The notes: generated by a model from the sequence alone, not told the origin. A stretch of 64,000 nucleotides of DNA from an uncultured Candidatus Saccharibacteria bacterium (GCA_964642155.1 CAZXNT010000004.1:2040-66039), one strand, 5' to 3'. Counted from the stretch's first letter, positions 1 to 58,339 are shown. Translations and numbers: made by a program.

Positions 1-114
1 TTTAGGTAAAATGTTTATTAAAAATCGTCTCAAATCTTATTTAACGGGGTGCTCAATGTTGTAGATAAATTTATTTCGCTCAACATTGGGTTTCGCTTAT
101 AAATTTATACAACA

Positions 115-1302
115 TTGGCAATGACTATTTTAATTAAAAACACTCAACTTCTTGATGGTACGGGCAGGTCGGCGATAAAAGCCGATGTTTTGATAAAAAA
201 CGATAAAATTTCCGCCATCGGCAATTTCCCGAATTATAAAGCTGATGAAATTATTGACGCGATGGGCGCTTATTTAGCTCCGGGGTTTATTGATATTAAT
301 AATGAAAGCGACCATTCGTTGGAAATTTTTTCTAATGATTATCAGGAAAATATTTTAAAACAAGGAATTACTTCCGTTATCGGCGGACACGGGGGCTTTT
401 CTTTGGCGCCGCTTCTTTACGGCTCTTTGGAAGCGATTAAACCATGGGCGGATATAAGAAAAATTAATGTTGATTGGCATACTTTAACTGAATTTTTAAA
501 GACTTTTAAAACAAGAAAGCTTAATGTGAATTTTGGCACTTTTTTGGGGCATACAACCGTTCGCTTTGATATTATTCACGACGCGCATAAATTAATTTTT
601 CGCGATTTGACTCCAAACGAATCGGCGGTTTTGAATTTTGTTATGGGGAAAAATTTAAAAGCAGGAGCTTTCGGCATTTCCGTCGGTTTTGACCACTCTT
701 TGGCTTCGGAAGTGTCCTATTTTGAAATTAAAAAAATGGCGGAATTGGCCGTTAAAGTCGGCGCGCTTTTAAGTTATAATCTTAAAGACAATAAAGAAGG
801 AATCGTTGATTCCGTTAAAAAAGCGATTTTTTTGGCAAAAGAAACCGGAGTTAAAATTTTGATAAATAATTTTAAACCGTCTCTGGAAGCTTTTAATTTA
901 ATTGAAGAAAATTCCAGCAACGCTGATATTTGTTTTTGCGCGAATCTTGATGATAATTATTCCGGCGAATCGGTTAAAATGTTGCAAAGCGACAAAGCTC
1001 TTATTTCTTCCGGCTTGCCTGCGCAGGCAGGCGGCTTTGGAAAATTTTTGGAATTAGTTGAAAAGGACAAAATTATGACAATTGAAGAAGCAGTTAAAAA
1101 AATAACTTCTTTGCCGGCGGCGAAGCTTAAATTGGATAAAAGGGGAATTGTTCGGGAAGGGTATTTTGCTGATTTGGTTCTTTTCAGAATTGAAAATTCG
1201 GAAATTTCAGATGTTATTATTAACGGTAAAAGAGCGGTGAAAGAAGGGAAATTCCAAAATATTTTAGAGGGGAAGGCGTTGGTAAACGATAAATTTATAT
1301 GA
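115..1302 (+). CDS. Amidohydrolase-family protein (D-aminoacylase/dihydroorotase-like metal-dependent hydrolase)
   Basis: 395 aa ORF; N-terminal DVLIKNDKI...G.IDI.NESDHS pattern typical of amidohydrolase fold; overlaps the ftsW start by 4 nt. Confidence 0.5.
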   Translation: MAMTILIKNTQLLDGTGRSAIKADVLIKNDKISAIGNFPNYKADEIIDAMGAYLAPGFIDINNESDHSLEIFSNDYQENILKQGITSVIGGHGGFSLAPLLYGSLEAIKPWADIRKINVDWHTLTEFLKTFKTRKLNVNFGTFLGHTTVRFDIIHDAHKLIFRDLTPNESAVLNFVMGKNLKAGAFGISVGFDHSLASEVSYFEIKKMAELAVKVGALLSYNLKDNKEGIVDSVKKAIFLAKETGVKILINNFKPSLEAFNLIEENSSNADICFCANLDDNYSGESVKMLQSDKALISSGLPAQAGGFGKFLELVEKDKIMTIEEAVKKITSLPAAKLKLDKRGIVREGYFADLVLFRIENSEISDVIINGKRAVKEGKFQNILEGKALVNDKFI

Positions 1303-4052: not shown

Positions 4053-4105
4053 TTTTTTTAATTTTTTCTTGATTTTTATAAATAACACGAGTATATTGTT
4101 ATCGC

Positions 4106-4291
4106 GGGGTAGAAGAGTTGTGTCTCACAGTGTCTTTTAGACTCATAATTTTATTTCTATTCTTCGCCGAGATTTTCTGAAAATTTGGAGCATCTCGGCG
4201 GGGTAGAGGAACGGTACCTCGCAGTGTCTTATAGACTCATAATCCCCATTTCTGTTCTTCGCTGAAATTTTCTAAGTTGTTGGAGTATTTC
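4106..4291 (+). repeat. Two tandem degenerate copies (about 93-bp period) of the 5' half of tRNA-fMet, upstream of the intact gene
   Basis: gcggggtagaagag... (4106) and gcggggtagaggaacggtacctcg... (4199) repeat the acceptor/D-arm of the tRNA at 4292, each followed by the ctcataat(cccca) anticodon-loop remnant and diverged filler. Confidence 0.6.
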
Positions 4292-4362
4292 AGCGGGGTA
4301 GAGGAACGGTACCTCGGGGGGCTCATAATCCCCAGGAGCGGGTTCAATTCCCGCCCCCGCAA
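4292..4362 (+). tRNA. tRNA-fMet (CAT), initiator-type
   Basis: Manual cloverleaf: A1xA72 mismatch, D-stem GAGG/CCTC, anticodon loop CTCATAA, G-C rich anticodon stem, T-loop TTCAATT, 3' CCCCGCAAC as in E. coli tRNA-fMet. Confidence 0.75.
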
Positions 4363-4378
4363 CATTTTTAAAATTTTC

Positions 4379-40615: not shown

Positions 40616-40881
40616 GTAGCGGCGAAGCAAAACCAAAAATTTCCTTTCCATTTTTTGTCGGCTCCCCCCACACCCCCCGCCGAGAATCTAAAAGAAAGGA
40701 AGGAAAATTTTTGGTTTTTGCTCCCGCGACCGAAGGGAGCGGACGAGGCGCGCAGAGTTCGCTTCACCACGCGCTCCGCGCGTACGATTTTGGTCAGAGC
40801 CACCACTCACGCGGAGCGTGCGAAGTCATTGGTCTTTCCGCTCGAAAAAGGTTCGCGCAAAGTGTATAATTACAGCACCAT
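40616..40881. repeat. IR1-R: right (inverted) copy of the about 265-bp repeat
   Basis: Reverse complement of 38018..38280 with one indel at the outer end; ORFs 40576..40806(-) and 40613..40975(+) mirror the artefactual ORFs in IR1-L. Confidence 0.85.
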
Positions 40882-40972
40882 AAGTAACTTGTTCGGAAAT
40901 GACTGCTCCGCGCGGCGAGTACGCCGCGCTCCGCAGGGCAAAATCCGCTTTTGTTTTCGCCGTGAAATCCCA
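40875..40972. repeat. IR2-L: left copy of a 98-bp inverted repeat (overlaps the end of IR1-R by about 7 bp)
   Basis: gcaccataagtaacttgttcggaaatgactgctccgcgcggcgagtacgcc...gtgaaatccca; reverse complement at 42426..42523 with one mismatch. Confidence 0.85.
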
Positions 40973-40988
40973 TAATTCGCCCCAGCGT

Positions 40989-42662
40989 ATGGAAACAACT
41001 CAAACCAAAACTAAATGCGTTCTCTACGCTCGCAAGAGCACCGAGGAGGACGACAAGCAAGTGATGAGCATAGACGCTCAACTTTTTGAGCTGAAAGAAT
41101 ATGCTCGTAGAGAACGCATTGAAATCGTAAAAGTATTTACGGAAGCGAAAAGCGCAAAGAAGCCCGGGCGAGACCAATTCGCCAAAATGATTGCGTATAT
41201 TGAAAGTTCTAGTGAACCGCTTGGTATTTTGGCATGGCACCCAGACCGTCTCGCCCGTAATTCTGTTGATGGCGGAAAAATTATCTATCTCATAGACATC
41301 AACAGAATTGCTTCTTTGCGCTTTCCGCAGTTTTGGTTTGAGCCAACTCCGCAAGGGAAATTCATGTTGCAAGTGGCGTTCGGACAAAGCAAGTATTTCT
41401 CGGATAACTTAGTGGAAAATGTGAAGCGCGGTATCCGCCAAAAACTCCGCCGTGGCGAATGGCTGACGCTCGCTCCTTTGGGATATGTGAATAATTACAA
41501 AACGCGGAACATTGACCCTCACCCTACATATTCCAAAGTTATCAAGCGAGCGTTTGAGGAATACGCCACCGGAAAATATACCCTTGTCGGTTTAGCGGAG
41601 TTTTTGGCGGAGCATAGCATTGTCCAAAAGAAAGGAACGTCACTTGCCAAAGTTTCCGTCGTGAAAATGCTCACGAACAGGGCATATTTGGGATTTGTAA
41701 AATTTCATGGCGAATATCACGACGGAAACTTTGAGCCGATTCTTTCCCCGACACTGTTTGAAGCAGTGCAGAAGGTTTTGAAATCCAAGCAACGACCGCG
41801 CAAACAAAAGGAGAGGTATGATTTTCCATTTACGCAGTTTGCGCGGTGCGGCGAGTGCGGCAATATGATCACGGCGCAATATGCCACTAACCGCTTCGGC
41901 ACTCGCTATACTTACTATCGTTGCACCAAGAAAAGCGGAAAGTGTAGCCAGCCGTATATTGCCGCTGACGCGCTCGCCGCTCAAGCGCAAAGACTGCTTC
42001 AATCAGTGTCGCTCCCTCTCGAAGAAATTGCGATTATGGAAAAGCAGATAAACGTATGGAAAAACGAGTCAATTTCTTTGAGAGGAGAAGTTGCCCAAAA
42101 TCTGAAATCCAAGCTTTCCGAGGCGCAGGAGAAGCTAGACCGGCTTGTGTCGCTCTATCTCGACCAAGATATCGAGCGCGACCTGTATCTCACTCGCAAA
42201 GACGCTCTCCTGCGCCAAAAAGCGAAGTTGGAGGAAAGTTTGGGAGATTTTGGGCAACAAGGAAAGAATCGGCTCGAACCCTTGTGGAGTTTCGTTTTGT
42301 CCTTGAAAGAAGCGGAAAAAGTAGCGCAAACAAAAAATTACGCCGAATGGCGCAACTTTTTCCGTTCTCTCGGCTCTAACCCCGAAATCAAGGACAAAAC
42401 GCTTTCAATCAATTGGGGCGAACTCTGGGATTTCACGGCGAAAACAAAAGCGGATTTTGCCCTGCGGAGCGCGGCGCACTCGCCGCGCGGAGCAGTCATT
42501 TCCGAACAAGTTACTTATGGTGCCCGGGGTGGGATTCGAACCCACAAACCTTTTGGGTCAAGGATTTTAAGTCCTCTGCGTAAACCGTTCCGCCACCCGG
42601 GCATATTTAAATTTCGAGGCCTGAGGCGGAATCGAACCGCCGTTATACCCAGCACCTCTTGA
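40989..42662 (+). CDS. Large serine recombinase (resolvase/invertase catalytic domain + recombinase domain + zinc ribbon)
   Basis: Start METTQTKTKCVLYARKSTEEDD (catalytic Ser), LAWHPDRLARN, zinc ribbon CGECGN...YYRCTKKSGKC; about 47% GC; ORF has no stop before 42662 and reads through IR2-R and two tRNA genes, so the true C-terminus is uncertain. Confidence 0.8.
   Translation: METTQTKTKCVLYARKSTEEDDKQVMSIDAQLFELKEYARRERIEIVKVFTEAKSAKKPGRDQFAKMIAYIESSSEPLGILAWHPDRLARNSVDGGKIIYLIDINRIASLRFPQFWFEPTPQGKFMLQVAFGQSKYFSDNLVENVKRGIRQKLRRGEWLTLAPLGYVNNYKTRNIDPHPTYSKVIKRAFEEYATGKYTLVGLAEFLAEHSIVQKKGTSLAKVSVVKMLTNRAYLGFVKFHGEYHDGNFEPILSPTLFEAVQKVLKSKQRPRKQKERYDFPFTQFARCGECGNMITAQYATNRFGTRYTYYRCTKKSGKCSQPYIAADALAAQAQRLLQSVSLPLEEIAIMEKQINVWKNESISLRGEVAQNLKSKLSEAQEKLDRLVSLYLDQDIERDLYLTRKDALLRQKAKLEESLGDFGQQGKNRLEPLWSFVLSLKEAEKVAQTKNYAEWRNFFRSLGSNPEIKDKTLSINWGELWDFTAKTKADFALRSAAHSPRGAVISEQVTYGARGGIRTHKPFGSRILSPLRKPFRHPGIFKFRGLRRNRTAVIPSTS
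42426..42523. repeat. IR2-R: right copy of the 98-bp inverted repeat, ending exactly at the 3' end of tRNA-Leu(TAA)
   Basis: tgggatttcacggcg...aagttacttatggtgc; the terminal tggtgc is the reverse complement of the tRNA discriminator+CCA. Confidence 0.85.
42521..42602 (-). tRNA. tRNA-Leu (TAA)
   Basis: Manual fold on minus strand: acceptor GCCCGGG/CCCGGGC, anticodon loop CTTAAAA, long variable arm, T-arm GTGGG-TTCGAAT-CCCAC, encoded CCA. Confidence 0.8.
42603..42661 (-). other. Truncated tRNA-like fragment (acceptor + T-arm only) between tRNA-Cys and tRNA-Leu
   Basis: minus strand cgaggcc-tcaagaggtgctgggtataac-ggcgg-ttcgatt-ccgcc-tca-ggcctcg; lacks D and anticodon arms. Confidence 0.4.
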
Positions 42663-42733
42663 GGCCTCGGGGAGAATCGAACTCCCGTATAAGAGTTTTG
42701 CAGACTCTCGCCTTACCACTTGGCTACGAGGCC
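42662..42733 (-). tRNA. tRNA-Cys (GCA)
   Basis: Manual fold: acceptor GGCCTCG/CGAGGCC, 3-bp D-stem, anticodon stem AGAGT/ACTCT loop CTGCAAA, T-arm GGGAG-TTCGATT-CTCCC. Confidence 0.8.
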
Positions 42734-42970
42734 ATATTTTCTTTTTAGTAATTCTTTTTGTTGATGGTTTTTAAGAAATTTTTCATATTTCATAGCTTCA
42801 CTTCTTGAGTTGCGTTCATAATATTCAAGTAATTTCCATGGGCGATACGCTTTTGTTGATTTTACTTTTCCTTGATTATGTAAAATAATTCTTTTTTCAA
42901 GATTTGCCGTACTGCCAATATAGATATCATTATTTTTATCGCTTTTCAAGACATAAATATAGTAATTCAT
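42713..42970 (-). CDS. GIY-YIG nuclease-family protein (free-standing homing-endonuclease-like)
   Basis: Probable start MNYYIYVLKSDKNNDIYIGSTANLEKRIILHNQG (GIY-YIG core); stop codon lies inside the D-loop of tRNA-Cys; ORF-track start 43036 is likely an upstream over-extension. Confidence 0.65.
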   Translation of the reverse strand: MNYYIYVLKSDKNNDIYIGSTANLEKRIILHNQGKVKSTKAYRPWKLLEYYERNSRSEAMKYEKFLKNHQQKELLKRKYGLVAKW

Positions 42971-42974
42971 AAGA

Positions 42975-43043
42975 GTTTTGTCTGGCTTCGCCAGATCTCG
43001 CGTAGCGAGACAGACCCTCGCTTTACCACTTAGCAACCAGGCC
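42975..43043 (-). pseudogene. Divergent 5' half of a tRNA-Cys-like gene carrying a 30-nt twin-hairpin insertion in the anticodon loop; 3' half replaced by the GIY-YIG ORF
   Basis: minus strand ggcctggttgctaagtggtaaagcgagggtctg + tctcgctacgcgaga|tctggcgaagccaga + caaaactcttATG; acceptor 5' strand does not pair with the downstream tRNA-Cys 3' strand. Confidence 0.5.
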
Positions 43044-44736: not shown

Positions 44737-44763
44737 CCTTCGCCCGCCATAGCGGGCTTCGGC

Positions 44764-44827
44764 GGACACAGTCCGCCAGAGCTTTAGCGACGGCTGGACA
44801 CAGTCCGCAAGAAGTTTGCGACGGCGG
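44764..44827. repeat. Two tandem 32-bp GC-rich repeats each containing a ggac-aca-gtcc hairpin, preceded by a gcccgc-cata-gcgggc hairpin
   Basis: ggacacagtccgccagagctttagcgacggct / ggacacagtccgcaagaagtttgcgacggcgg; directly downstream of tRNA-Ser, upstream of a GIY-YIG gene. Confidence 0.55.
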
Positions 44828-44839
44828 GATGATTAAGTT

Positions 44840-45076
44840 ATGTATATAGTTTATATTTTAAAATGTATTGATGGAAAATCATATACTGGTTGTACAGAAA
44901 ATTTAGAAGAAAGATTAAAACGACATAATAATGGTTATGTTCCAGCAACTGAAAATCATCGCCCTGTTAAACTTATAACACACATTGTGTTTAGTGATAA
45001 ATATAAAGCGTTTGAATTTGAAAAATATTTAAAATCTGGTTCTGGACGAGCATTTTTAAATAAACATTTATATTAG
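44840..45076 (+). CDS. GIY-YIG nuclease family protein (YhbQ-like)
   Basis: 78 aa; MYIVYILKCIDGKSYTGCTENLEERLKRHNNG matches the GIY-YIG core. Confidence 0.7.
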   Translation: MYIVYILKCIDGKSYTGCTENLEERLKRHNNGYVPATENHRPVKLITHIVFSDKYKAFEFEKYLKSGSGRAFLNKHLY

Positions 45077-55072: not shown

Positions 55073-56191
55073 ATGTCTGATTATTACAAAATTCTCGGTA
55101 TAAATAAGGGAGCGTCGGATGAAGAAATCAAGAAAGCTTTCAGGAAATTGGCGCATCAGTATCATCCGGACAAAAAAGGCGGCGATGAAAAAAAATTCAA
55201 AGAAATAGCGGCAGCTTACGCGATTTTGTCGGATAAAAATAAACGCGAACAGTATGATAAATACGGCAGGGTTTTTGATGGACAGCAATCTAACGGAGGC
55301 GCCGGGCCCTTTGGTTCCGGTTTTGGCTTTTCTGCCGGAGGCGGACCAGCCTCTGGCTTTGAATTTGACCCGTCGGCTTTCAATGATTTCACTGACCTGG
55401 GAGATATTTTCAGCGCATTTTTTGAAGGAATAGGGGTTAGACAAAAAAGACGCACTTATCATCGCGGGGCGGATATTGAAATTATTCAGGAAATAACGCT
55501 TGAAGAAGCGTTTTACGGAGTTAAAAAAGAATTAAAATACAATATTGCCGTTGGTTGCGTCAAATGCGGCGGTAAGGGATATGACCAAAAAGAAGGTTTT
55601 GAAAAATGTTCTGTTTGCGGCGGCAGTGGGGAAATAAAAGAAGCGAGAAATACTTTTTTCGGCAATTTTTCCCAGATTAAACAATGTAAAGAATGTTTTG
55701 GTAGCGGGCAAATTCCAAAAAAATCTTGTGTTGAATGCCGTGGCAAAGGCATAATTTCCGGCAATCGCGACATCAAAGTAGAAATATTGTCCGGAGTTAT
55801 GGATAGCCAATTTATAAAAATAACCGGCGCCGGCGAAGCCGGAGAGCGAGGAGCCGGAACAGGAGATCTTTATGTCAGGATAAAAATCAAACCGCATTCT
55901 GTTTTTAGCAGGCGCGGGAATGATTTGTTTATCAGAAAAGAAGTAAAATTGATTGATATTTTTTTGGGAGAAAAAATTGAAATACCGATGATTTCCGGAG
56001 AAAAAATCAGCGTTGAAATTCCTGAAAATTTTGACTTGAAAAACGATTTAATCGTTCCGAAACAGGGAATGCCGATTTTCAGTTCGTCCAATCGAGGTAA
56101 TTTAGTCGTTGAATTTAAAATCAAAACCCCTAAAAAACCAAACGCTAAGGCAAAAAAAATTCTGGACGATTTTAAAAAAGAAATTGACTGA
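55073..56191 (+). CDS. dnaJ: Molecular chaperone DnaJ
   Basis: 372 aa; J-domain with HPD, G/F region, four CxxCxGxG zinc-finger repeats. Confidence 0.85.
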
Positions 56192-56202
56192 ATAATAAAA
56201 AC

Positions 56203-56240
56203 GCCCCGCAAAGCGGGGTTTACCACTAAGCTATGGGAGC
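56203..56240. terminator. Bidirectional terminator hairpin ccccgcaaagcgggg fused to a tRNA-Lys 5'-half-like fragment
   Basis: plus strand aaaaacgccccgcaaagcggggttt; minus strand reads gctcccatagcttagtggtaaa-ccccgctttgcgggg-cgttttt (first 22 nt = 5' end of tRNA-Lys at 56738). Confidence 0.5.
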
Positions 56241-56245
56241 GGCAC

Positions 56246-56533
56246 TTAGATTTCTTTTGTCGCATTATGCCACGCTTTAAGAGCTTCGCTGGATTTTTTT
56301 ATAGCCTCATCCATTAAAGAAGCGTATTTCTTAAATATAATCCTTCCTTCTTCTGTTTTATCCGGCGCACTAATAAGAATTTTATTAATTTCTTTCGCTA
56401 TTGTATCTACTTCGCTCATTGCGGCTTGCCATTCTTTATATTTTTGGCCCCCTAAATTTTCTTGAGCCGAACTTTTTTCTTTATTGGGTTGTTCACTCAT
56501 AATTTTGATAATTATTATTTTATGCTCCCACAA
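56246..56533 (-). CDS. Hypothetical protein
   Basis: 95 aa ORF. Confidence 0.3.
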   Translation of the reverse strand: MWEHKIIIIKIMSEQPNKEKSSAQENLGGQKYKEWQAAMSEVDTIAKEINKILISAPDKTEEGRIIFKKYASLMDEAIKKSSEALKAWHNATKEI

Positions 56534-56610
56534 GGAATCAGTCCCTGGGTTCTAGCTGTGCTCGTCCTGCTTCGCAAGACTGCGCTCAGAGAACCCTTCG
56601 ATTCCTTGTA
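56523..56610. other. Structured element: long hairpin (acaaggaatc ... gattccttgt) carrying a tRNA-Lys 3'-end-like fragment
   Basis: minus strand ...gattccttgtgggagca matches T-stem 3' + acceptor 3' of tRNA-Lys; 10-bp terminal inverted repeat; GC-rich internal stems. Confidence 0.4.
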
Positions 56611-56667
56611 AAAATACAATAAAATATAAATATCAAAATAAATTTAATATTTATATTTTATATTTTG

Positions 56668-56738
56668 TGCTCCCACAAGGAATCGAACCTTGATCAATTG
56701 CTTAAAAGGCAACTGCTTTACCACTAAGCTATGGGAGC
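56668..56738 (-). tRNA. tRNA-Lys (TTT)
   Basis: Manual fold: acceptor GCTCCCA/TGGGAGC, D-arm GCTT..AAGC, anticodon stem GTTGC/GCAAT loop CTTTTAA, T-arm CAAGG-TTCGATT-CCTTG. Confidence 0.8.
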
Positions 56739-56879
56739 GTATTTTATTAGTTCTTTAATATTATAACCTCCTTTTTCAATATTGGAAGTTGAGCCAATAT
56801 AATTTTTTTTATATCTATCACTTTTTATAATATAAGCATAATACTTCATAAGTCAATTAAATCCATGTAATTGACTTAA

Positions 56880-57060
56880 AAGTCCCGCAAAGCGGGGTTT
56901 ACCACTAAGCCCCGTTTCACGGGACCCCGTTTTGCGGGGCTATAGGAGCGTGTGCCCAGGGGGAGAGTCGAACTCCCATGCCTTGCGGCACGCGATTTTG
57001 CCTGCCCCGTACCGAGCTTTGCTCTGGCGCGGGGAGTCATGCGCGCCCCGCACTAAATTT
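56880..57060 (-). other. Composite of tRNA-derived fragments and GC hairpins; a complete tRNA could not be folded by eye
   Basis: minus strand: T-arm gggag-ttcgact-ctccc + cctgggca with GNRA-capped variable-arm-like stem, then gctcctatagc[hairpin insert]ttagtggtaaa-ccccgctttgcggga-ctttt (tRNA-Lys 5' half split by an insert). Confidence 0.35.
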
Positions 57061-57067
57061 TGTTTTG

Positions 57068-57151
57068 TGGCCAGGGAGGGATTTGAACCCTCACGCCCTT
57101 GCGAGCAATGGATTTTGAGTCCATATTGTCTGCCAATTCCAACACCTGGCC
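57068..57151 (-). tRNA. tRNA-Leu (CAA)
   Basis: Manual fold: acceptor GGCCAGG/CCTGGCC, anticodon stem ATGGA/TCCAT loop CTCAAAA, long variable arm, T-arm GAGGG-TTCAAAT-CCCTC. Confidence 0.8.
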
Positions 57152-57194
57152 ATTTATTTAATTATTAAGAAACAAAATTAGTGCGGGGTAAATC

Positions 57195-57232
57195 TGCCTC
57201 CGCCAGCTGGCGGACCGCCACCCGGGCATAAA
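57195..57232 (-). other. tRNA-Leu(TAA) 5'-end-like fragment fused to a ccgccagctggcgg palindromic hairpin
   Basis: minus strand atgcccgggtggcgg (identical to 5' end of tRNA-Leu at 42602) + tccgccagctggcgga hairpin. Confidence 0.4.
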
Positions 57233-57298
57233 TAATTAAAAATAACTGGGCATAACTTAGTTATTGATAATATCAAAATTTTATTTTATAGTAAAGAT

Positions 57299-58339
57299 AT
57301 GGAAGAAAATAATCAATCTCACTTGTCCGCCGAAGCTTTAGCGAAGGCGGGAAATCAAGATTCGTCCCATGACGAGCCGCCTTTTATGCTGCCGTTGACT
57401 GATACGGAAAAATACCATCAACTTGCTCCGCAAATTCAACCGCAGCCGCAGCCAGAACCGCAACCACAACCGCAAATAAATATAAATGATAAAAAATCGT
57501 TTGTTAACAACGCGATTTTTCATATTGAAATAGAAAAAATAAAACCCAATCCTTTCCAACCGCGCAAAACATTTGACGAAGAATCATTAAAAGAACTGGC
57601 AACGTCAATCAGGGAATTCGGCGTTATTCAGCCGATAGTCATCACAAAAATAGAACATGAAATTGAAAATGGAACGCAAGTTGAATATCAGCTTATTGCC
57701 GGAGAAAGGAGATTAATGGCGTCAAAATTAATCGGCCTTGAACGTATACCGGCGATTATTAAAAGAATTGCGCAAGGCGATGGAGCTGTGCAAATGGAAA
57801 TGGCGATTGTGGAGAATCTTCAACGCTCCAGCCTTAATCCCATTGAAACAGCCAGAGCTTATGCCAAACTCCAAGACCAATTCGGATTAACTCAAAGAGA
57901 AATCGCCGCTAAACTTGGTAAAAGCCGCGAAACAATCGCCAACGCGGTCCGGCTTTTGAATTTACCGACGGAAATCCAAGACGCGCTGGCAGACGAAAAA
58001 ATAAACGAAAGCCAAGGAAGATTGCTTTTAACTGTTGATGATTTGGCTCAACAAATTGCGGCCTTCCGGGACTTATTGTCCAATAATTTAAGCGTTCGGG
58101 AATTAAAGAATAAAATTAGGAGAATAACGACTCCAATTGAAGAAAAAACGGAATTATTCGCTGAAAACGCCGCTGTTGACCCGGAAATAAACGATATGCA
58201 GGAAAAATTAATGGAACTTCTCGGCGCTCCGGTAAAAATAGATCCGCCAGTCGGCGGATCCGGCAAAGGAAAAATCGTCATTCAATTCTTTTCTTCTGAA
58301 GAAATTAAAGGAATAATTAATAAGCTGACAAACCAATAA
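57299..58339 (+). CDS. parB: ParB/Spo0J-family chromosome partitioning protein (N-terminal PQ-repeat extension)
   Basis: 346 aa; ParB box IQPIVI...AGERRLMASKLIGL...IPAII; HTH GLTQREIAAKLGKSRETIANAVRLLNLP; PQPQPEPQPQ repeat. Confidence 0.8.
   Translation: MEENNQSHLSAEALAKAGNQDSSHDEPPFMLPLTDTEKYHQLAPQIQPQPQPEPQPQPQININDKKSFVNNAIFHIEIEKIKPNPFQPRKTFDEESLKELATSIREFGVIQPIVITKIEHEIENGTQVEYQLIAGERRLMASKLIGLERIPAIIKRIAQGDGAVQMEMAIVENLQRSSLNPIETARAYAKLQDQFGLTQREIAAKLGKSRETIANAVRLLNLPTEIQDALADEKINESQGRLLLTVDDLAQQIAAFRDLLSNNLSVRELKNKIRRITTPIEEKTELFAENAAVDPEINDMQEKLMELLGAPVKIDPPVGGSGKGKIVIQFFSSEEIKGIINKLTNQ

Follow-up and report, generated by a model that had tools for sequence, protein, structure and literature searches.

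tRNA fragments and mini-palindromes between dnaJ and parB in a Saccharibacteria genome: possible remains of small nuclease-tRNA cassettes

Phage T4 carries in its tRNA cluster a free-standing GIY-YIG homing endonuclease, SegB, whose recognition site includes conserved tRNA-gene sequence and which drives the inheritance of its own gene and of neighbouring tRNA genes (PMC2330249). The prokaryotic Slx1 group has been described as a minimal GIY-YIG domain (PMC1564403). In archaea and red algae, transcripts of disrupted tRNA genes are repaired by a splicing endonuclease that acts at bulge-helix-bulge motifs, and mobile elements have been proposed as the cause of the disruptions (PMC4390854, PMC3293823). 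For bacteria of the candidate phyla radiation (CPR; Patescibacteria), homing-endonuclease-bearing insertions in rRNA genes have been reported (PMC11270868). Here we analyse a 64,000-nt stretch of DNA from an uncultured Candidatus Saccharibacteria bacterium (GCA_964642155.1, CAZXNT010000004.1:2040-66039; the window, below), in which fragments of tRNA genes joined to GC-rich hairpins lie between dnaJ and parB, around genes for tRNA-Lys and tRNA-Leu. Miniature palindromic insertions, some of them tolerated in coding sequence, are known from the Rickettsia palindromic elements (RPEs) and from repetitive extragenic palindromic (REP) and bacterial interspersed mosaic element (BIME)-type repeats.

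The explanation that we favour, with moderate confidence, is that small cassettes, which would have spread by homing, invaded a resident tRNA-Leu(CAA)-tRNA-Lys(UUU) pair and that the fragment-plus-hairpin modules are structural parts of these cassettes or products of their decay. An intact cassette opens with a copy of ~22-34 nt from the 5' end of its target tRNA. Perfect GC-rich mini-palindromes, either one or two, come next and disrupt the anticodon arm, and a few tRNA-derived bases follow. After them, an open reading frame (ORF) of ~85 amino acids (aa) for a GIY-YIG nuclease reaches or enters a functional tRNA gene of the same isoacceptor, and a second, hairpin-bearing partial copy is often present.

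Pieces of a resident tRNA-Leu and tRNA-Lys pair

The fragments occupy positions 56198-57227 and are flanked by dnaJ (55073-56191, plus strand) and parB (57299-58339, plus strand); all features of the fragment region lie on the minus strand. ARAGORN and Rfam identified two genuine tRNA genes in this region and no others, tRNA-Lys(UUU) at 56738-56667 and tRNA-Leu(CAA) at 57151-57068. A repeat search and BLAST confirmed all four of the tRNA-fragment-plus-hairpin elements that the original prediction, made by reading the sequence, had named. Chance similarity was excluded as their source, because the hairpin motif CCCCGCNNNGCGGGG gave six matches where 0.03 were expected. The locus is not an assembly artefact, since it is 100% identical in an independent assembly (L005) and a third assembly (L006) agrees, also at 100%, across the part that it covers.

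Two Leu pieces, at 57227-57193 and 57045-56953, are the halves of one resident tRNA-Leu(CAA) gene, which we refer to as the outer gene. Its 5' end (GCCCGGGTGGCGG, 57215-57227) comprises the 5' strands of the acceptor stem and of the D-stem, and it pairs with the acceptor 3' strand at 56960-56954. This exact 13-mer is the same as the first 13 nt of tRNA-Leu(TAA), a match that is marginal when taken alone (BLAST E=0.059). On its 3' side, reading of the sequence showed a perfect 16-nt palindrome in the D-loop (TCCGCCAGCTGGCGGA, 57199-57214), followed by the remainder of the loop, GGCAGA (57193-57198), which aligns to GGCAGA in the tRNA-Leu(CAA) of a relative, L210. A 147-nt insert (57046-57192; repeat search; DNA fold -34.1 kcal/mol, z=-6.3) then separates the D-loop from the D-stem 3' strand. 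Within it, an inverted repeat of ~19 bp (CCCCGCACTAATTTTGTTT and AAAACAAAATTTAGTGCGGGG) encloses the intact, foreign tRNA-Leu(CAA) at 57151-57068, which scored 54.6 bits with Rfam. The 3' part of the outer gene (56953-57045) contains the D-stem 3' strand, the anticodon-stem 5' strand, CAAAATCGCG, a long variable arm, the T-arm and the acceptor 3' strand. Here a 30-nt hairpin insert (57034-57005; fold z=-2.5) and CAGG stand between nt 33 and 34, so that with the palindrome and the 147-nt insert the gene has three interruptions. The T-arm (GGGAGTTCGACTCTCCC) is that of tRNA-Leu(CAA) in L210 and in a second relative, L004, and the junction GGGCA-CA-CGCTCC is also present in L004.

When the inserts were spliced out, ARAGORN called the outer gene as tRNA-Leu(caa), with two anticodon-stem defects remaining: the 5' strand of this stem reads CATGA instead of CGCGA. 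Because these two substitutions break the stem, the outer gene is considered a pseudogene. The spliced sequence is identical to the intact tRNA-Leu(CAA) of L210 at 76/81 positions, to the nested tRNA-Leu(CAA) at 60/85 and to tRNA-Leu(TAA), located 15 kb away, at 60/83. These values are pairwise identities on the spliced sequence; with the unspliced sequence, MAFFT aligned the references to the nested gene. The Leu piece had been attributed at first to tRNA-Leu(TAA), and the identities demonstrate that this was wrong and that the piece belongs to the resident tRNA-Leu(CAA). The inverted repeat of the insert (CCCCGCACTAAWTTT) was found in the window's own genome only, and there was no copy of the nested tRNA-Leu among viral contigs.

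The Lys pieces appear from their alignment to be the borders of a cassette that is intact in the relatives L210 and L087, where its order is Lys(1-22), hairpin, GIY-YIG ORF, functional tRNA-Lys and hairpin-bearing Lys copy. The left border is module (b) (56883-56950). Two Lys pieces, GCTCCTATAG (56949-56940) and CTTAGTGGTAAA (56909-56898), together make up nt 1-22 of tRNA-Lys with one substitution, and two 15-nt hairpins (56939-56910) part nt 1-10 from nt 11-22 in the D-stem/D-loop. On the 3' side a further hairpin, CCCCGCTTTGCGGGA (56897-56883), takes the place of nt 23-31 and is followed by CTTTTAA. Module (b) was found in the repeat search, folds as DNA with -20.8 kcal/mol (z=-4.1), has a terminator-like site, and aligns with the left modules of L210, L087 and L003. 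At 56724-56882 the anticodon loop is completed by CTTTTAAG, and an AT hairpin and a GIY-YIG ORF with an internal deletion follow. This truncated ORF (56849-56724) has 41 aa and terminates at a TAG that belongs to the D-loop of the functional tRNA-Lys. The Pfam GIY-YIG model matches its N-terminal 25 residues with E=0.0045, below the curated cut-off, and it is 58% identical over 26 aa to the full-length GIY-YIG protein of the tRNA-Cys locus (see below); only the first 26 residues are kept. Full-length counterparts occupy the same position in L210 and L087. The intact tRNA of the cassette is the functional tRNA-Lys(UUU) (56667-56738; ARAGORN; Rfam 77.7 bits), which is identical over 71 nt to the tRNA-Lys of L004.

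The right-hand Lys copy is in two parts. In module (c) (56523-56609), the remnant of that copy, TTCGATTCCTTGT is present in inverted orientation, ahead of an inner cGAAg hairpin (GTCTTGCGAAGCAGGAC) and the 3' end of tRNA-Lys, GATTCCTTGTGGGAGCA (BLAST matches of 17 and 13 nt; repeat search; DNA fold -20.7 kcal/mol, z=-5.1). Its fragment at 56539-56523 is the exact 3' end of tRNA-Lys over 17 nt (BLAST E=2e-4), and it closes a long hairpin in which the T-loop and T-stem, copied in inverted orientation, form the other arm. The repeat search also detected a 40-nt duplication that spans the Lys 3' end and its flank. Module (a) (56198-56241) is probably the 5' part of the same hairpin-bearing copy. 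It begins with C plus tRNA-Lys nt 1-22, exact over 23 nt (56241-56219; repeat search; BLAST E=2e-7), and continues with the hairpin CCCCGCTTTGCGGGG (56218-56204) and a T-run, CGTTTTT. The junctions of modules (a) and (b) share 94% identity over 33 nt, and both modules align to the borders of the Lys cassettes in L210 and L087. Taken together, we conclude that the Lys cassette of the window is decayed, with its nuclease ORF down to 41 aa and its right-hand copy broken into (c) and (a).

The AGTCAATT likeness of modules (a) and (b) had raised the idea that (b) carries a copy of the dnaJ 3' end, and this was ruled out because L210 shows the motif in (b) to be tRNA-derived (AAGCAATT). An ARAGORN fold of modules (b) and (c) combined was discounted, as the missing segments had been filled from the real gene.

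Between modules (c) and (a) lies an ORF of 84 aa (56246-56500), found in the ORF list and called as a gene in L005. It gave no Pfam match above cut-off and no match in PHROGs or PADLOC; it has no counterpart at the equivalent position in L210, L209, L098 or L004, and it shows no similarity to the ORF at the corresponding place in L098. Apart from this ORF and the nested tRNAs, the region 56198-57227 is likely to be remnant DNA, and the two nested genes are likely to be its only functional tRNAs.

The original prediction had also considered that the modules are RNase-P-processed, tRNA-like 3' ends serving as mRNA terminators. The 84-aa ORF ends immediately before module (a), whose hairpin, located 13 nt from the dnaJ stop codon, closes the minus-strand transcription unit and scores with its T-run as a terminator. 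A terminator consensus scan predicted two such sites from sequence, at 56218-56204 (tail CGTTTTTATT) and at 56896-56884 (tail ACTTTTAAGT). However, only module (a) is at an mRNA 3' end, and a hairpin with a T-run is by itself an ordinary intrinsic-terminator signal; a GC hairpin placed before the anticodon loop CUUUUAA of tRNA-Lys gives a terminator-like signal. Further, the fragments are 5' portions of 22 nt that have neither an acceptor-stem partner nor a T-arm, and no tRNA-like fold was detected in them by ARAGORN, or by Rfam even at E<=10, across 55500-58000, where only the two nested genes scored as tRNAs. Processing by RNase P as terminators is therefore not supported, and we give it next to no chance. 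The other Rfam matches at E<=10 (plant microRNA, plastid untranslated region and small RNA families) were dismissed as chance or antisense-tRNA matches. Promoter-like sites were no more frequent than in shuffled sequence (5 vs 3.3 +/- 2.2).

Recurrence of the design in relatives and at other tRNA genes

We examined the orthologous dnaJ-parB site in relatives. Intact Lys cassettes were recovered by a metagenome scan with a looser D-loop pattern and by ParB-guided look-ups; a metagenome scan with the ORF-tRNA-Lys junction pattern TAYGCTCCCATAGCTTAGTGG gave no matches. In L004, whose ParB is 88% identical, the site is empty and carries an intact Leu(CAA)-CA-Lys(UUU) pair. The junction of this pair is exactly that of the window at 56975-56940, which shows that the outer pieces are the ancestral genes still in place. 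In L210 and L211 (ParB 74% identical) the dnaJ-parB synteny is kept and a full Lys cassette is present, in the order intact Leu(CAA); Lys(1-22), TCCGCCAGCTGGCGGA and CTTTTAAGCAATT; an 87-aa GIY-YIG ORF; intact Lys(UUU); a 5'-truncated Lys with a hairpin for nt 23-31; and a terminator. L087 and L105 have the Lys cassette as in L210, but with a full-length hairpin-bearing Lys. L209 holds a fragment and hairpins without an ORF, L098 has neither fragments nor a cassette at this site, and L002 and L003 encode an identical ParB protein while the sequence upstream of parB differs between them. We conclude that the dnaJ-parB site is polymorphic, forming a presence/absence and decay series, and that the window represents a late stage of it. 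In an unbiased sample of 88 loci, ~5/47 tRNA-Lys(UUU) genes carried a cassette, and all GIY-YIG matches (7/7) were within 150 nt of a tRNA.

Some of these relatives show additional features. In L003, an ORF of 175 aa (99-626, minus strand) lies between tRNA-Leu(CAA) and a Lys fragment-plus-hairpin module; it matches DUF1706 (1e-7), is weakly similar to the LAGLIDADG-like N-terminus of WhiA, and may be a second nuclease type at the dnaJ-parB site. In L004, an inverted partial 3' end of tRNA-Leu(CAA) with CCA occupies positions 1-40, ~120 nt downstream of tRNA-Lys and at the contig end. Contigs of several relatives end upstream of parB or inside repeats, suggesting that tRNA-derived repeats fragment assemblies.

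The states of this site also bear on the proposal that the fragments form a small mobile or recombinogenic family seeded from tRNA ends. Its mobile aspect is upheld by the variable states at dnaJ-parB and by fragments that travel with a GIY-YIG gene; the unit, however, is the left border of a larger cassette, always at the cognate tRNA locus, and not a small element seeded from tRNA ends. In the strict form of this proposal, the tRNA-5'-end-plus-hairpin module is itself mobile or recombinogenic and copies around the locus. The junction shared by modules (a) and (b) would fit such copying, as would the occurrence of mini-palindromes at unrelated sites, including coding sequence, and their patchiness in ParB homologues (see below). 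Yet the module is found at the cognate tRNA locus only and is always the border of a larger cassette in intact relatives, BLAST detected no further copies of the Lys or Leu module anywhere else in the 64 kb, and a 40-nt module encodes no means of moving. We consider independent mobility of the module very unlikely.

An intact sister cassette is present in the window itself, at tRNA-Cys (42616-43043, minus strand; BLAST and Pfam). Its first element is nt 1-33 of the outer tRNA-Cys; a pair of 15-nt palindromes (43010-42981) then separates anticodon nt 34 from nt 35, and CAAAACTCTTAT comes after them. An 85-aa GIY-YIG ORF (42970-42713; Pfam PF01541, 1.6e-16) follows and overlaps the first ~20 nt of an intact tRNA-Cys (42733-42661). 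The cassette ends with the outer Cys 3' part (42660-42616), whose acceptor strand fits the outer 5' end and not the inner one, and the spliced outer halves fold as tRNA-Cys(gca) in ARAGORN. The 107-aa ORF called at this locus in public data (P0122) is artefactual, its reading frame extending across the palindromes and the tRNA fragment. The original prediction was incomplete in that it included neither the intact tRNAs nested between fragments nor the like structures at tRNA-Cys and tRNA-Met. The tRNA-Met gene (4292-4363, plus strand) has two ~94-nt tandem partial copies of its 5' half directly upstream (4104-4291), with exact matches to nt 2-25 at 4198-4221, to nt 31-43 at 4236-4248 and to nt 2-11 at 4104-4113. 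They contain no ORF and may be another decayed cassette. A third GIY-YIG gene (44739-45076, plus strand; 78 aa; Pfam 2.1e-15) belongs to a different subfamily (35% identity) and is located ~100 nt downstream of tRNA-Ser(GCT), with several GC-rich hairpins between. The same order of tRNA, hairpins and ORF occurs in L155 at tRNA-Ala and in L111 at tRNA-Lys(CUU).

Homologues of the cassette nuclease numbered 244, nearly all of ~85 aa, and the named ones are from Patescibacteria. In their C-termini (…KKY-GLVAKW*) the tRNA-Cys sequence is read as protein, and the catalytic residues Y6, Y17, R27 and E63 are invariant in 42 homologues. The nearest solved structures by sequence are BH0048 (1zg2, E=8.3e-7, residues 1-71) and EF2693 (1ywl, E=5e-3), followed by SLX1 chains, and the protein is predicted to be a stand-alone prokaryotic GIY-YIG nuclease of the Slx1/UPF0213 type. 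The NCBIfam model for group I intron endonucleases covered only the N-terminal ~35 residues and was below cut-off, and matches to homing endonucleases in PHROGs and NCBIfam were weak. PADLOC indicated no defence-system membership, giving weak partial matches only, the best of them to a generic 'HEase' (8e-6, L087 protein). Because viral contigs gave only two GIY-YIG matches, both weak and partial, and no copy of the nested tRNA-Leu, a phage origin is not supported.

We measured recurrence of the design in 80 nuclease-encoding loci from GTDB species representatives. In 76/80 loci (73 Cys, 3 Ser) the start of a tRNA lies -17 to +27 nt from where the protein match ends, and in 56 of these 76 the protein match extends to the tRNA 5' end or past it. 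Upstream of the ORF, most loci carry a copy of tRNA nt 1-33/34 that is often identical to the inner gene (median local score for nt 1-33 of 29.5 vs 13 for the control); a recognisable outer 3' half is missing in most Cys loci. Between nt 34 and 35, 33 loci carry an insert of 30-31 nt, and others have three to four hairpins there; the remaining anticodon loop and then the ATG follow.

Two further explanations were weighed. One is that the fragments are scars of integrase activity, that is, att-site duplications of tRNA-targeting integrative elements. tRNA genes are classic integration sites at which partial duplicates are left behind, the 40-nt duplication of the Lys 3' end with its flank resembles such a scar, and a serine recombinase with inverted repeats adjoins tRNA-Leu(TAA) at 40.9-42.5 kb. 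Against this, the duplicates are mostly 5' parts and not 3' parts, and the palindromes sit at fixed tRNA positions, unlike att duplications. The DNA between the repeats is shorter than 0.7 kb and encodes no integrase, its ORFs being the 41-aa GIY-YIG remnant and the 84-aa ORF; the nearest recombinase is 14 kb off, and the same layout with a GIY-YIG ORF occurs in the 76/80 loci. We judge integrase scars highly improbable. The recombinase gene itself (40875-42523) is large (Resolvase, Recombinase and Zn-ribbon domains) and has 121-nt inverted repeats (93%) on both sides, the right arm of which abuts the tRNA-Leu(TAA) 3' end; the unit may be an invertible or integrated element.

The other explanation is that the outer Leu, Lys and Cys genes are functional multi-intron or split tRNA genes from which the inserts and the nested cassette are removed at the RNA level. 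Removal in silico does restore cloverleafs with matching acceptor strands for outer Cys and, with its two anticodon-stem defects, for outer Leu, and the insert positions (34|35 and the D-loop) are fixed across genomes. However, Rfam matches at E<=10 in 55500-58000 included no intron family, group I among them, and the inserts are hairpins of 15-34 nt. Excision at the Lys type cannot restore a tRNA, because the hairpin replaces nt 23-31, taking 8 nt of the D and anticodon stems. In addition, most Cys loci have no recognisable outer 3' half, an intact gene for the same isoacceptor is always adjacent, and the outer Leu carries its stem-breaking substitutions. Functional split genes are in our judgement extremely improbable.

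The palindromes were analysed in the 30-nt inserts, which are composed of two hairpins, TCxxxC-TNC-GxxxGA and TCxxxC-GNA-GxxxGA. Of the cells in 18 distinct sequences, 99.5% were paired, as compared with 15-52% in register-shifted controls. Two-sided changes occurred in 8/12 pairs, one-sided changes in none, and there were no G-U pairs, which suggests that the palindromes are under a DNA-level constraint. Perfect 15-nt hairpins are concentrated in the cassettes, with 12.3 per kb in the 120 nt upstream of the ORF, 5.2 per kb in the 150 nt after the inner tRNA and 0.14 per kb elsewhere in the same loci. The 16-mer TCCGCCAGCTGGCGGA of the outer Leu D-loop recurs as the Lys-module hairpin in L210 and L003 and also in frame in parB and topA genes. 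The palindrome TCCGCC-AGYY-GGCGGA is in frame in parB of the window (58243-58258), in L001 (1014-1029 and 3878-3893) and in L196 (1536-1551), where it encodes D-P-P-A/V-G-G. ParB homologues read either VKI-DPPAGG-SG or VKIEK----SG with a patchy distribution, indicating that the mini-palindrome acts as an indel in coding sequence.

A vertically inherited operon could also produce many of these observations. A useful host nuclease, for example in DNA repair or in tRNA/RNA metabolism, would be encoded with a co-transcribed tRNA, the hairpin-bearing partial copy would be a cis-regulatory or processing leader, and the fragments of the window would be a degenerating copy. The Cys version is found in the same Cys-Leu(TAA) context in 70+ loci of many Patescibacteria lineages, its hairpin stems covary strongly and the active-site residues of its nuclease are conserved; a reported fusion of an Slx1-like domain to the tRNA methylase TrmH hints at RNA metabolism (PMC1564403). 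An operon is at odds, however, with a single orthologous site that is empty in some relatives, full in others and decayed in yet others (ParB identity 74-88%), with the low frequency at tRNA-Lys(UUU), and with the truncation or loss of the ORF in the window and in L209. The absence of both G-U pairs and one-sided changes is unusual for a selected RNA structure, and versions with an upstream ORF exist at no fewer than three isoacceptor types, i.e. at least Cys, Ser and Lys. We therefore regard an operon as unlikely and retain the invading cassette as the favoured explanation.

A possible homing-like mode of spread

The likeliest model for the cassette is a selfish element that would spread via nuclease-initiated, homology-directed (homing-like) copying into cognate tRNA genes, by analogy with SegB of T4 (PMC2330249). 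In this model, homology arms would be provided by the tRNA-derived pieces, which may alternatively be target duplications. More speculatively, the palindromes may inactivate the duplicated tRNA copies. The sole good tRNA would then stand between hairpin-poisoned repeats, such that deletion through recombination of the repeats would be lethal and the cassette would be retained. At the same level of speculation, the palindromes could be the substrate of a structure-specific nuclease, and RNase P, by cutting at the inner tRNA, would deprive the ORF of its stop codon and so limit its expression.

Several observations weigh against a homing cassette. The nuclease proteins have 78-87 aa and consist of the catalytic domain only, lacking the DNA-binding domain of characterised GIY-YIG homing endonucleases, and their closest structural relatives are repair-type, structure-specific nucleases. 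An enzyme aimed at tRNA genes should also cut the intact inner tRNA gene, in which the expected target sequence is preserved, and homing does not account for the immunity of the carrier allele. The Leu insert contains no ORF, and it is consequently tied to the nuclease cassettes by analogy only. A single insertion does not account for the order of module (c), the 84-aa ORF and module (a). The same palindromes occur at unrelated sites, in frame in parB among them, and thus may have arisen independently of the cassettes and simply build up in DNA that is no longer functional. Finally, the Cys version keeps its Cys-Leu(TAA) position across very diverse Patescibacteria, which old vertical inheritance of a useful operon would fit equally well.

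We also put forward, tentatively, a broader hypothesis that we find possible but doubtful. The cassettes would constitute an unrecognised class of selfish elements in Patescibacteria, in which a minimal Slx1-like nuclease gene lies head-to-tail with a captured functional tRNA and the flanks are palindrome-poisoned pieces of the target. The palindromes would be the DNA substrates of the nuclease and would themselves be mobile, even into frame in parB, and the host would be unable to delete the cassette, being addicted to it via an essential gene.

If homing cassettes are indeed the source of the modules, they would explain the fragment-littered tRNA loci of these tiny genomes and the broken metagenome assemblies, and ORF calls through tRNA pieces, such as the 107-aa GIY-YIG version, would have to be treated as annotation artefacts. 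The large, uncharacterised bacterial Slx1/UPF0213 family would gain a function-linked context. An 80-aa nuclease, 15-nt palindromes and a tRNA target would form a compact natural system for homing without a DNA-binding domain, one that bears on 'addiction' through capture of an essential tRNA and on the origin of mini-palindromes in coding sequence.

Comparison with known systems

A literature search did not find GIY-YIG/tRNA cassettes or anticodon-loop palindromes described in CPR bacteria, which is no proof of novelty. Of the known systems, SegB resembles the cassettes in being a GIY-YIG gene that lies among tRNA genes, without an intron, and is present or absent between relatives (PMC2330249). 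Unlike them, SegB is much larger, encoded by a phage and directed to a 27-bp site, whereas the nuclease here is an Slx1/UPF0213-type catalytic domain of ~80 aa on a bacterial chromosome, with predicted cleavage activity. The cassette ORF also runs into the tRNA, and the target tRNA is partly duplicated with perfect mini-palindromes. The UPF0213 proteins BH0048 and EF2693 (PMC1564403) are the best structure matches and share the minimal single-domain size. They differ from the cassette nucleases in being regarded as vertically inherited and repair-type, and no association with palindromes, tRNA genes or fragments of genes has been reported for them.

Integrative elements that target tRNA genes are likewise bounded by partial tRNA duplicates and leave one functional tRNA. 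The cassettes differ from them in having no integrase, mainly 5' duplicates, a size of 0.3-0.7 kb and copies interrupted by palindromes. As in RPEs and REP/BIME-type repeats, GC-rich palindromes occur here in intergenic DNA, in RNA genes and in frame in protein genes (the patchy DPPAGG of ParB); at 15-16 nt they are far shorter than RPEs, and within the cassettes they stand at fixed tRNA positions and usually come in twos.

The disrupted tRNA genes of archaea and red algae are also interrupted at D-loop and anticodon-loop positions. Unlike in those genes, there is no sign of splicing here, and a separate intact gene supplies the function. The insertions reported in CPR rRNA genes come from the same bacterial group and are similar in that essential RNA genes are invaded by nuclease-encoding DNA (PMC11270868). 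The cassettes differ in that their targets are tRNA genes and that the cassette brings a replacement tRNA gene with it.

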